This document shows, in pieces, positions 35,072 through 40,304 of a DNA stretch of 64,000 nucleotides. The stretch lies in NCBI RefSeq assembly GCF_054482595.1, contig NZ_CM137008.1; one strand, written 5' to 3'. Both the position numbers and the translations under genes were made by a program. The notes below the pieces were generated by a model, which did not search any database, was not told the DNA's origin, and worked only from the letters and a program-made list of their open reading frames with translations. Within the stretch, counting starts at the first letter, position 1; every line of letters starts with the position of its first letter.

Positions 35072-37606
35072 TTAATTACTACCAAACATATCTTTAATCC
35101 AACCGGCTACACCGTCGCTGTCTTTCTGCTCTTGCTGAGCAGGTTGCTGTTGCGGCTGTTGCTGCGGCTGAGAAGACTGATCAAACGGATTGCCTGACGG
35201 CTGCTGCTGCATCTCACTCTGCTGGCACAGCGATTGCGGATCGCTGGTCCAGACCGGCAAGACACGCATGCCACCGCTGCAAACAAAGTTGCCGTCGTAG
35301 TCCACGCCCATATCTGCAATATCTTCTGGCGGAACAAGATTCAGCGGCGTTGGCGTCTGGTTAGCCAGATAACGCTGATAAATCGACATTGCCCCGCTGG
35401 CACCATACAGTTTGGTCGGCTGGTTGTTATCACGGCCGACCCAGGTGATGGTCACCGTGCTGCCGTCAATGCCCGCAAACCAGGTATCTACGTTATTGTT
35501 GGTAGTCCCTGTTTTCCCTGCCAGATGCAGGTTCGGGTATTTCGCCCCAAGCTGACGACCCGTACCACGTTGTACCACCTGCTGCATGGTCCATAGTGTC
35601 AGATACGCCGCCTGCGCCGGAACAGCGCGTTCCGCCTGCGGGAAGCTCTGATACAGCACTTTGCCATCTTCCGCGATTACCGAACGCAGCGCAGAAAGCG
35701 GTGCACGGTTACCACCGCTGGCGATGGTCTGGAATGCCTGCGCCACTTCGATTGGCGTTAAGTTCAACGCCCCCAGCAGCATTGCCGGAACCGGATGCAA
35801 CTGATCTTTCGGTACGCCCAGTTTGATCCAGGTATCCGTAACCGCAGGCAGCCCCAGCGCCATCCCCAGATTTACCGTCGGCACGTTCATCGAACGGGTC
35901 AACGCATCCACCAGCATCACTCTGCCGCTTTCGCTATAACGACGGTCATCATTCTGCGGTGACCAGACCTGGCCATTCGGCTGACGCAGCGCAATTGGCG
36001 CATCCGCAATCCACGTATTCAGACGATAGATTTTCGGCTGGCTTAAGGCCGTCAGATAAGTCGCTGGTTTTGCAAGGGAACCAATCGAACGACGCGCCTG
36101 CATCGCACGGTTGTAGCCCGCAAACTGCGGCTCAGAACCTCCGACCATCGCACGAACTTCACCACTAAAGCGGTCGACGACCACAATCGCGGTTTCCAGA
36201 TCGCTCAGCTTACGCTGTTTCTTAAGTGCCGGAATGCCTTCCACGGCGGCTTTTTCTGCCGCGTCCTGGGCCACCGAGTCAAAGGTAGTGAAGATCTTCA
36301 CGCCGGAGAGATCTTTTACCTTATCGCCTAATTTAGCCTGAAGCTCCTGACGCACCAGTTGCATAAAGGCTGGCTGAGGAGAGATCACCCCACCGCGCGG
36401 CTGAACACCCAGCGGACGCGCACTCAACATGTCATAGAGTTCTTGATCAATAATCTGTTGCTGTTGCAGCAGACGCAGTACCAGATTACGTCGCTCCAGC
36501 GCCAGTTTCGGGTTACGCCACGGGTTGTAGATGGACGCTCCTTTCACCATACCGACTAACAGCGCCTGCTGATCGAGGCTCAATTCTTCTACCGGGCGAC
36601 CAAAGTAATACAAGCTCGCCAGCGGGAAGCCGCGGATTTCGTTGTCGCCGCTCTGACCGAGATACACCTCGTTCATATACAGCTCAAGAATACGGTCTTT
36701 GCTGTAACGCGCGTCCATGATCAGCGCCATGTAGGCTTCATTCGCTTTACGCCAGTAAGAGCGCTCGCTGGAGAGGAACAGGTTTTTCACCAGCTGCTGC
36801 GTCAGCGTACTCGCCCCCTGCACCGTTCGACCTGCGGTCAGGTTTGCCAGCACCGCACGTCCGATGGAGTAGAGACTGATCCCATCATGCTCGTAGAAAT
36901 GACGGTCTTCTGTCGCCAGCAAAGTATCCACCAGCAAATCCGGGAAACCACTGCGCGGCACAAACAAACGCTGCTCACCGTTTGGTGAGGAGATCATGGT
37001 GATCAGACGCGGATCAAGACGGAAGAAACCGAACTGACGGTTGTTCTCCATATTGACGATGGTCGCCAGATGATCGCCATCAAAGGTCAGACGCGCACGC
37101 ACCTGCCCTTCTTTGCTGTCCGGGAAATCAAACGGACGGCGGATCATCTCAATGCTGTTAGCCTGCACAGTAAATTCGCCAGGACGGGTCATTTTCGACA
37201 CCTGACGATACTGGGTTGCCTCCAGCAGCTTCACCATTTCGTTCTTGCTGATGGTCATGTCTGGCTCAAGGTTGACCATTCGGCCATAAACTGCCGCAGG
37301 CAGTTGCCAGACCTTGCCATCAATACGGCTGCGAATTTTTTGATCGAGATAAACGCCGTAAATGGCGATCAGCACGGCAAAAACGATAGCCAGTTTTAAC
37401 AGCAGCCATAGCCAGCCGCGTTTGCCACGAGGCTTACGCCCTTTGCCTTTGCCCTTACCTTTGCGCGGCATCGGTTCTTCATCCTCATAGTCATCATAAT
37501 CGTCGTAATCATCGTCATCTTCGTAACGACGACGGCTTACCTTTTGTTTGACCGGACGCGTCGGTTTCCCTTTGCGTCCAATTGGCTCGCGGTCATTCCC
37601 GGCCAT
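35072..37606 (-). CDS. mrcB: penicillin-binding protein 1B (bifunctional glycosyltransferase/transpeptidase)
   Basis: ORF contains [23 protein letters not shown]...; start placed at that Met (844 aa); track ORF has 5 extra N-terminal codons. Confidence 0.93.
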
Positions 37607-37703
37607 GCTTTTTCTCCGCAATATTCAGGCGCAAAAGCCCGATTTTCTGTTCTTCTGTTACAAGACAGAAGAAGATATCTCTCAAAATTTGAGCTCGATC
37701 GGT

Positions 37704-37789
37704 CCCCTCTCCCTTAAGGGAGAGGGTTAGGGTGAGGGTGAACGTGCGCGCTGATGCCCTCACCCCGGCCCTCTCCCACAGGGAGAGGG
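37704..37789. repeat. cluster of three GC-rich palindromic units between hrpB stop and mrcB start
   Basis: CCCTCTCCC-ttaa-GGGAGAGGG; GGGTGAGGG...CCCTCACCC; CCCTCTCCC-aca-GGGAGAGGG. Confidence 0.6.
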
Positions 37790-37801
37790 AGAAAACCAAC
37801 C

Positions 37802-40231
37802 TTACGAATACTTTTTCGTCCGTCGCGTCGGTGCCGTGTTTGCCGGGTCGTCCGGCCAGACGTGTTTGGGATAACGCCCTTTCATCTCTTTTTGCACCTC
37901 ACGATACGCCCCTTTCCAGAAGGCCCCCAAATCACGCGTGATTTGCAGCGGCCTTTGGGCAGGTGAAAGCAATTCCAGCACCAGCGGCACGCGCCCCTGG
38001 GCGATCGTCGGATTGGTGGCCTCACCAAACATCTCCTGCATTCTCACCGCCAGCGCGGGCGGGTTATCTTCATGATAACGAATGGCGATCCGGCTTCCCG
38101 TCGGCACAGTGTAATGCGCAGGCAATTCACTATCCAGACGTTGCTGCATTCCCCAATCAAGTAATCCGCGTAGTGCCTGATAAATGTCGAGTGATTTCAG
38201 GCCGCGTAGTGAATGTACACCGGCCATATGTGGCAGCAGCCACGTTTCCAGCGTCGCCAACAAACTTTCATCATCAACCGCTGGCCAGTCATATTCTGGC
38301 AACCACTTTCCGGCGCATAACAAACGCAAGCGTAGCTGTTCCGCTTCCGCCGTCCAGTTGAGCACGCTTAAACCTTTATCACGGATGCCGTTAAGCATCG
38401 CCTGATGCAACTCGTCTTCTGACGGTTTCGCCAACGGCTGCACTTTCACCGTCAACTGACCGATTTGCAGCCGACGCCAGGCTTTCAGTGTACCTTGCGC
38501 GTCATCCCATTCCACGGTGTCAGATTGCTGCACCAGCTGCGGACTGCGTCGCACTAATTCATCAATATCGACCGGTAACGCCAGTAAAATCCGCGCATCC
38601 GGCGAGGCGCTGCCCTGCAATAATAACGGTGCGATCAACCATTCGTGGCGGCTTAGCGCGTCGTCGGCATCGAGCATCGCCCCCATGCCGTTTGCCAGTT
38701 GATAGCGTCCATCTTGCCCACGGCGGCGAGCAATGCGATCGGCAAACGCCCCGGCAAGTAGCGGCGCGATAAGCGAACTGTCTGCCTCACCGCCGCGTAC
38801 GTTTAAGCGTTTTAACAGTTGCTGACTACGTTGCTGCCAGGCTGGTTGATTGCGCGAAAACGCCACGCCCAGGTCACTATTGCCCATCCGTGGCGGCTCT
38901 TCGAGAATGGCGGCAATTTTTGCCGCGGTAGCAGCTTCGTCGTCGCTCTTTGCGCTAACCAGCATTGCCGCTAAACGCGGATCGTTACCCAGCGCTGCCA
39001 TTTTTTGCCCCTGCGCACTAAGCCGTTCACCGTCCAGCGCCCCCAGCATCTTTAACAGGCGTTTCGCGGCCAGTAAATTCACTGCTGGCGGTTGATCCAG
39101 CCAGCTCATCTGCGCTGGATCGCTGCATCCCCATTGCAGTAATTCCATCAGCAAACCGGAAAGATCGCTTTGTAATATTTCCGGTTCACTTTGCGCCGCG
39201 GCGCGTTCTGCTTGTTCCTTGGCGATTAAATGCTGGCAGATACCCGACTCCAGACGCCCGGCGCGCCCGGCACGCTGCGTCATGGATGCCTGGCTAACGC
39301 GTTGAGTAATCAGTCGCGTAAGCCCCGTGCGCGGATCAAAACGCGCCACACGCTCCTGGGCACAATCCACCACCAGACGAATACCTTCAATGGTTAAACT
39401 GGTTTCAGCAATATTGGTCGCCAGCACCACTTTGCGCATCCCTTGCGGTGCCGGGAGGATCGCTTTTCGCTGATCGTTCAGCGACAACGCGCCATACAGC
39501 GGGCAGAGCAACACATCACTGCCGATGCGCGAAGCCAGTTGTTCCTGCACACGCTGAATTTCTCCGACGCCCGGTAAAAATAACAGTAATGATCCGCTTT
39601 CCTGACGCAGCATTTCGGCGGTAGCAACCGCGACGGCTTCGTCAAAACGCTGATGCGCGGGCAACGGAAAATAGCGGCGCTCAACCGGAAACGAGCGCCC
39701 TTCTGAGATGACGACGGGCGCTTCTGGTAGCATTTGTTGCAAGCGGTCGTTGTCCAGCGTAGCTGACATAATCAGCAGTTTAAGGTCATCGCGCAGGCCT
39801 TGTTGCACGTCTAGTAACAACGCCAGCGCCAAATCCGCCTGCAAGCTGCGTTCATGGAATTCATCGAGAATCACCAGCCCAACACCGCTCAGTTCCGGGT
39901 CACGCTGGATCATCCGCGTCAGCACGCCTTCGGTAACCACTTCCAGGCGGGTATTTGGCCCGACGCAGTTTTGCGCACGCATCCGGTAGCCAACGGTATC
40001 GCCTGGCTTTTCGTTAAGCAGCTCCGCCAGCCGTTGCGCGACGTTACGCGCCGCCAGACGACGCGGCTCCAGCAGGATAATTTTCCCGTTAATGCCGGGA
40101 TGCGCCAGCAGTTGCAGCGGCAGCCAGGTTGATTTCCCGGCCCCGGTCGGCGCACTTAATAATACCTGCGGCGCACAATCGAGAGCGGTAAGTAATTCAG
40201 GTAAGACGGCAGCAACGGGCAACGACGACAC
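37802..40231 (-). CDS. hrpB: ATP-dependent RNA helicase HrpB (DEAH box)
   Basis: 824-aa track ORF with GAGKST Walker A and DEFH motif; start tentatively placed at in-frame GTG (40229-40231) to give about 809 aa; upstream ATG at 40276 also possible. Confidence 0.85.
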   Translation of the reverse strand: MSSLPVAAVLPELLTALDCAPQVLLSAPTGAGKSTWLPLQLLAHPGINGKIILLEPRRLAARNVAQRLAELLNEKPGDTVGYRMRAQNCVGPNTRLEVVTEGVLTRMIQRDPELSGVGLVILDEFHERSLQADLALALLLDVQQGLRDDLKLLIMSATLDNDRLQQMLPEAPVVISEGRSFPVERRYFPLPAHQRFDEAVAVATAEMLRQESGSLLLFLPGVGEIQRVQEQLASRIGSDVLLCPLYGALSLNDQRKAILPAPQGMRKVVLATNIAETSLTIEGIRLVVDCAQERVARFDPRTGLTRLITQRVSQASMTQRAGRAGRLESGICQHLIAKEQAERAAAQSEPEILQSDLSGLLMELLQWGCSDPAQMSWLDQPPAVNLLAAKRLLKMLGALDGERLSAQGQKMAALGNDPRLAAMLVSAKSDDEAATAAKIAAILEEPPRMGNSDLGVAFSRNQPAWQQRSQQLLKRLNVRGGEADSSLIAPLLAGAFADRIARRRGQDGRYQLANGMGAMLDADDALSRHEWLIAPLLLQGSASPDARILLALPVDIDELVRRSPQLVQQSDTVEWDDAQGTLKAWRRLQIGQLTVKVQPLAKPSEDELHQAMLNGIRDKGLSVLNWTAEAEQLRLRLLCAGKWLPEYDWPAVDDESLLATLETWLLPHMAGVHSLRGLKSLDIYQALRGLLDWGMQQRLDSELPAHYTVPTGSRIAIRYHEDNPPALAVRMQEMFGEATNPTIAQGRVPLVLELLSPAQRPLQITRDLGAFWKGAYREVQKEMKGRYPKHVWPDDPANTAPTRRTKKYS

Positions 40232-40304
40232 AAAACGCTCCAGAGGGTTAACATTCTTCGCGCCACATTGTAGCATCGCGGTAATTCATAACCGAGTGCC
40301 TCAC

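Follow-up and report, generated by a model that had tools for sequence, protein, structure and literature searches.

The internal start codon at Met46 of Escherichia coli mrcB and the long and short isoforms of PBP1b

One mrcB mRNA of Escherichia coli very probably gives rise to two forms of PBP1b, alpha and gamma, which are made from separate starts and differ only at their cytoplasmic N-terminus. Ribosomes starting at ATG 37606, with the Shine-Dalgarno (SD) sequence GGAG, would produce alpha-PBP1b of 844 aa, and ribosomes independently starting at the in-frame ATG 37471 (Met46, SD GAGGA) would produce gamma-PBP1b of 799 aa. The 45 residues confined to alpha comprise a conserved basic peptide (residues 1-27) followed by an acidic D/E/Y spacer (residues 28-45). 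The basic peptide is reported to recruit alpha to the division site via a predicted contact with FtsA (PMC13423804), and gamma, retaining just the Lys/Gly-rich juxtamembrane tail, would remain peripheral. The codons of the acidic tract (GAY/GAR/TAY) appear to be in dual use, as the protein spacer of alpha and as an open, purine-rich landing site for the ribosomes that make gamma. What is said here of initiation and of isoform function is based on the literature, while the present analysis was computational.

Locus, gene identity and N-terminal tail

The analysed stretch of 64 kb (the window) is E. coli chromosome from a non-K-12 strain. Several complete E. coli genomes, XH990 among them, matched the window at 100% identity, and the gene order thpR-hrpB-mrcB-fhuA was that of E. 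coli. The mrcB product scored 1735.3 bits against the NCBIfam PBP1b equivalog NF007061 (cutoff 1120, residues 1-843) and 1248 bits against the PBP1b equivalog TIGR02071 (cutoff 717.75). Its Pfam matches, PF14812 PBP1_TM (1-79), PF14814 UB2H (113-197), PF00912 Transgly (209-379) and PF00905 Transpeptidase (473-714), follow the order expected for PBP1b, namely N-terminal tail and TM helix, UB2H, GT51 glycosyltransferase and transpeptidase. The PBP1b chains in the PDB (3VMA, 3FWL and 5FGZ) aligned from residues 53-58 through 804; since the solved structures begin this far into the protein, the alpha-specific tail has never been observed structurally. The features of the locus are compiled in Table 1. 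A TTG at 37621, five codons further upstream, was proposed as the mrcB start by the ORF lister and was rejected as an artefact, because it overlaps the SD sequence and RefSeq uses the ATG.

Table 1. Positions of mrcB, its two translation starts and the segments of the PBP1b N-terminus in the window
Feature	Position	Strand	Basis
mrcB (ponB), long alpha isoform of PBP1b	35072..37606	minus	844 codons + stop; ORF, translation, RefSeq annotation (100%-identical genome, K-12)
Alpha start ATG (Met1)	37604..37606	minus	Sequence; annotated start
SD GGAG for Met1, 7-nt spacer	37614..37617	minus	Top anti-SD duplex in 37300-37700(-), -6.6 kcal/mol
Gamma start ATG (Met46)	37469..37471	minus	Sequence; ATG/GTG/TTG in this column in 93/103 Enterobacterales sequences
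SD GAGGA for Met46, 10-nt spacer	37482..37486	minus	-6.1 kcal/mol; codons Glu41-Asp42 (GAG GAT)
Nested CDS, short gamma isoform, Met46 to stop	35072..37471	minus	Matches K-12 YP_010051172.1; literature
Residues 1-27, alpha-specific basic peptide, net +8	37526..37606	minus	Published predicted FtsA-binding 'N-pep' (PMC13423804)
Residues 28-45, acidic D/E/Y tract, net -13	37472..37525	minus	TRF 9-bp period; composition
Residues 46-63, basic Lys-Gly tract, net +10	37418..37471	minus	TRF 6-bp period; composition
Transmembrane anchor, residues 64-87	37346..37417	minus	Hydrophobic stretch; within PF14812 PBP1_TM match, residues 1-79

The tail in front of the membrane anchor consists of three blocks of alternating charge. 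A sequence-only reading of this DNA had described an acidic D/Y repeat followed by a KG repeat in the 5' region of mrcB, and the sequence itself, the TRF periods and the composition all agree with that description. In the TRF output the Asp-Asp-Tyr codons at 37491-37526 show up as 4 copies of a 9-bp unit and the Lys-Gly codons at 37440-37464 as 4.2 copies of a 6-bp unit, both with modest scores of 36-54. The acidic tract holds 13 D/E and 4 Y in 18 residues, and the binomial probability of at least 13 D/E in 18 is 3e-9 per position. In a six-frame scan of the 64-kb window (68,301 stop-free windows of 18 aa), at least 11 D/E occurred only in the acidic tract, and at least 8 K/R together with at least 6 G only in the Lys-Gly tract. 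The latter adjoins the membrane and forms the entire cytoplasmic tail of gamma. Among orthologues the N-terminus of alpha was near-invariant over about the first 14 residues (M[AS]G[ND]DREPIGRKG). The acidic tract differed widely in length among species, the internal start falling anywhere from codon 43 to 58, and the KG run ranged from none to four units.

A second low-complexity tail was seen at the C-terminus of PBP1b (residues ~795-844; 35075-35224, minus strand). It is rich in Gln and Pro, with 16 Q in the last 50 residues, and lies outside all solved structures, whose last residue is 804.

The two starts and the known isoforms

From codon 2 to the TM helix, Met46 is the sole canonical start codon in frame, and the span 37469-37606 extends exactly from Met1 to Met46, as the sequence-only reading had it. 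An anti-SD scan of 37300-37700 on the minus strand placed the best two sites in front of Met1 and Met46 (energies in Table 1). The GAGGA preceding Met46 consists of the codons for Glu41 and Asp42; the acidic tract therefore supplies the SD sequence of the internal start. The locus carries a start at codon 46 that matches the annotated PBP-1Bgamma CDS, with a ribosome-binding signal upstream of it.

The acidic-tract codons are also the least structured mRNA in 1 kb. Windows of 50 nt centred on 37485-37500 had folding energies of -0.7 to -1.4 kcal/mol, compared with a 1-kb mean of -11.8 (sd 3.7). Met46 accessibility, calculated from the partition function in a 240-nt context, ranked only in the top 12.5% of control sites. 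The openness of the region is real, not extreme. Among 93 orthologues, the 40-nt stretch just before the internal start was the window with the least structure in 74% (mean z +2.25).

The gamma start at Met46 is already known. In the RefSeq annotation of K-12 MG1655 (b0149), mrcB at 164730..167264 (NP_414691.1) is accompanied by 'PBP-1Bgamma' (YP_010051172.1) at 164865..167264, which begins 135 nt (45 codons) into mrcB and hence at codon 46. The ATG at 37469-37471, which had been singled out from the letters as the obvious candidate for the short form, coincides with this CDS. The isoforms have been published since 1984-85: a recent study states that mrcB has two start codons, the gamma start lying 46 codons downstream, and cites Kato 1984 and Broome-Smith 1985 (PMC13423804, Nat Microbiol 2026). 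That PBP1b exists in long and short forms through alternative initiation, as the sequence-only reading stated, is borne out by that study and by the K-12 annotation. The same authors used M46L to express alpha only, in agreement with the assignment of the short form to Met46, found alpha alone to be enriched and active at the division site, and ascribed its septal role to the N-terminal peptide, with predicted FtsA binding and a critical R6 (PMC13423804).

Published initiation profiling leads to the same site. Ribo-RET detected the internal initiation site of mrcB in E. coli (Meydan et al., bioRxiv 10.1101/520783), and mrcB, infB and clpB, the three E. coli genes whose internal starts had been characterised before, were all recovered by the method (10.1101/520783). 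For Salmonella, an mBio 2024 article describes a long and short MrcB pair with a Ribo-RET internal site, a 42-aa extension and peptides specific to the long form (PMC11005335). In our Salmonella locus the internal ATG was found at codon 43, matching this extension. A single isoform, or initiation elsewhere, would have spoken against the Met46 assignment; literature and annotation instead record two isoforms and initiation at this codon.

Compared with K-12 the window carries the same gene, locus and two starts, and residues 1-75 are the same. An ungapped alignment of the 5' regions shows only synonymous differences, which lie in the TM codons, the strain of the window being non-K-12. The Salmonella pair likewise has an internal in-frame ATG after the acidic tract and, that tract being shorter, an extension of 42 instead of 45 aa. 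infB (IF2 alpha/beta) and clpB (ClpB long/short) share the arrangement of one mRNA with two starts in the same frame, the second of which gives a product shortened at its N-terminus. These encode cytoplasmic proteins that lose a folded domain, whereas mrcB encodes a membrane enzyme that loses a disordered targeting tail of 45 residues. Gram-positive class A PBPs that bind GpsB also use a disordered cytoplasmic tail for recruitment to the division site (PMC13423804, discussion); neither the sequence nor the partner of these tails is related, and a dual start has not been described for them; the likeness is an analogy only.

Conservation of the internal start and the origin of the short form

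Orthologous 5' regions were collected with a degenerate DNA pattern for DREPIGRKG in species-representative genomes. This returned 120 loci, nearly all from Enterobacterales, of which 102 had a complete 5' region, giving 103 sequences with the window. The codon in the Met46 column was ATG in 66 of these 103 sequences, GTG in 25, TTG in two and GTA in one, and nine sequences had a residue other than Met, Val or Leu. Kluyvera, Pseudescherichia and Hafnia lacked a start codon both in the column and close to it. An SD sequence of -5.9 kcal/mol or stronger preceded 93.5% of the orthologue internal starts and 8.8% of control codons, phylogeny being ignored in this comparison. A protein database search with residues 1-225 returned mostly truncated fragments without accompanying DNA, and served for the protein alignment only. 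Four of the deposited N-terminal fragments (P0010, P0011 (Shigella flexneri), P0047 and P0072) leave the frame within the tail and then return to it, in one example over the acidic tract, which suggests frameshift errors or pseudogenisation in a repeat-rich, homopolymer-prone 5' region.

Initiation at Met46 could be genuine and at the same time a by-product, in that the acidic codons are SD-like and unstructured and any nearby AUG would fire, with no selected function for gamma. We consider this improbable, and it is the only rival explanation with some weight. When the acidic tract was resampled synonymously it was still SD-like, with a mean of about -5.6 kcal/mol compared with -2.7 at control positions, and the three genera named above do without a start codon. 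We know of no function specific to gamma PBP1b. The division role has been assigned to alpha only (PMC13423804).

The choice of codons in the Met46 column argues against such a by-product. Valine in this column was encoded by GTG in 25 of 26 cases, compared with 48% GTG among the remaining Val codons of these sequences (binomial P 1.7e-7 from raw counts, phylogeny ignored). At least five lineages switched independently, namely Erwiniaceae, Leclercia, Kosakonia, Klebsiella and Serratia plymuthica. Both Leu residues in the column, from Tatumella, were encoded by TTG, the background frequency of which is 7.8%; Rosenbergiella, left out by the first filter, also has TTG in the column, with GAGGAG upstream. 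The observed mean SD of -6.9 kcal/mol was stronger than every synonymous resampling (0/300). This excess over resampling was small in the ATG lineages (-5.83 vs -5.31), and the SD sequence was stronger in GTG lineages than in ATG lineages (-9.5 vs -5.8 kcal/mol; Mann-Whitney p 1.6e-10, phylogeny ignored). The pairing of weaker start codons with stronger SD sequences looks like compensation and also speaks against a by-product, as do the lone GTA, which belongs to an insect symbiont, and a Mixta genome in which the alpha-only part is interrupted by a stop and the internal GTG is preceded by a perfect SD sequence.

A further, more tentative proposal is that the alpha-only acidic tract is dual-coding. 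Its codons may be under selection both as protein spacer and as a leader that is free of structure, carries the SD sequence and determines the alpha:gamma ratio, although we rate this as somewhat less probable than its opposite. If it were true, start-codon and SD strength would co-evolve (ATG with GAGGAT, GTG/TTG with GAGGAG), and gain or loss of in-frame DDY or KG units would adjust, from strain to strain, the length of the spacer or the ratio of the isoforms. Conservation of the internal start as such is probably not new: the authors of PMC11005335 state that conservation of start codon and SD sequence was scored for truncated proteoforms in 100 enterobacterial genomes (mBio 2024). The aspects of compensation and mRNA structure alone could be new.

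Several individual sequences deserve description. Two Kluyvera loci, from Kluyvera intermedia and Kluyvera genomosp. 3 (L073 and L076), read EKPR-A/S-RKGG without a start in the Met46 column, and Kluyvera may make a single PBP1b isoform. L076 seems to be frameshifted twice, close to codon 3 and in the TM region, and assembly errors are possible. Nearby starts that might rescue initiation were noted in six of the ten sequences without a start in the column and were discarded, as chance alone places an in-frame ATG, GTG or TTG within +/-5 codons about half the time. The sole GTA-encoded Val in the column came from the Type-B symbiont of Plautia stali, a Pantoea-like insect-gut bacterium (L100), and is consistent with relaxed selection, as a single case. 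In Mixta sp. Marseille-Q2659 (L064) an in-frame TAG lies in the acidic tract (GAT TAC TAG GAG GAA AGA CCG GTG); the stop cuts the alpha frame short and also introduces a perfect AGGAGG ahead of the internal GTG. In this one genome the allele could be naturally gamma-only or could reflect an error of sequencing.

Gamma might instead be translated from a separate, shorter transcript whose promoter would lie within the first 135 nt of mrcB, a reading we hold to be very unlikely. Ribo-RET cannot distinguish the transcript under an initiating ribosome, and a -10 element might in principle be present in the acidic tract, which is richer in A/T. A sigma-70 consensus scan of 37200-37900 on both strands, a weak test, found no promoter-like site, and the terminator scan of the same interval, equally weak, found no terminator. 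Were such a transcript to exist, Met46 and the same SD sequence would still be used, and the claim on the start would be unaffected.

A third PBP1b band, beta, has been ascribed to cleavage of alpha by OmpT while samples are prepared, and proteolysis therefore does occur in the PBP1b tail. A literature search on the beta form and OmpT returned nothing relevant. The basic KG tract would moreover suit a dibasic-site protease. That the short form is itself a proteolytic fragment of alpha, with Met46 incidental, is nevertheless extremely unlikely, given that Ribo-RET places initiating ribosomes at this site in both E. coli and Salmonella (10.1101/520783; PMC11005335), that M46L serves to obtain alpha alone (PMC13423804), and that start-codon identity (ATG/GTG/TTG) and SD sequence are conserved at the DNA level, for which proteolysis would not select.

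With initiation at Met46 as the favoured origin of gamma, mrcB provides a positive control, a genuine internal start that was located by reading the letters alone. Conservation as ATG/GTG/TTG, SD compensation and open mRNA together form the profile of a real in-frame internal start, and this pattern could help to tell real internal starts from incidental Met codons in genome scans. As a discovery the case carries little weight: isoforms, starts and annotation were already known, and the division-site role of alpha comes from a 2026 paper.

Variation within E. coli and the hrpB-mrcB spacer

Within E. coli, at most 335 of 5,424 genomes differed by more than 1% over a 241-nt stretch (95-99% identity). 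Four variants (L003-L006, from ETEC1738, MLI114, N24 and LR14) had lost in frame one GAT (Asp), one GGCAAA (Gly-Lys) or both. These indels sit exactly in the two micro-repeats (37440-37526 of the window), and ATG46 and GAGGA were intact in all four. A reading of the micro-repeats as a contingency locus was rejected, because units of 3, 6 and 9 nt keep the frame and indel alleles are limited to the at most 335 divergent genomes. Two GTDB 'E. coli' representatives (L035 and L085) had even shorter tails, their internal ATG being codon 45 in L035 and codon 43 in L085.

The intergenic region between hrpB and mrcB contains an imperfect palindrome of ~85 nt (37705-37789), with arms GGGAGAGGGTTAGGGTGAGGG / CCCTCACCCCGGCCCTCTCCC and outer arms CCCTCTCCCT / AGGGAGAGGG, which is without RefSeq annotation. 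An Rfam scan of 37300-37900 at E<=1 yielded only sub-threshold hairpins on the palindrome (miRNA precursors, 15-27 bits compared with gathering thresholds of 37-105), no RNA family at the internal start and one chance MicF-like match with E 0.99. The palindrome belongs to a repeated extragenic element that has 1-5 sites per E. coli genome and occurs once in the window, and it is present or absent at this locus depending on the strain. The spacer measures 195 nt in the window and in K-12; in four other strains hrpB ends 93 nt before the mrcB ATG, and at least 80% of a 162-nt spacer was matched in only 3,247 of 5,426 genomes. In hrpB itself (37802-40276, minus strand) the longest ORF runs from ATG 40276 and encodes 824 aa, and the RefSeq annotation comprises 2,430 nt (809 aa), with a start 15 codons downstream of the first ATG.
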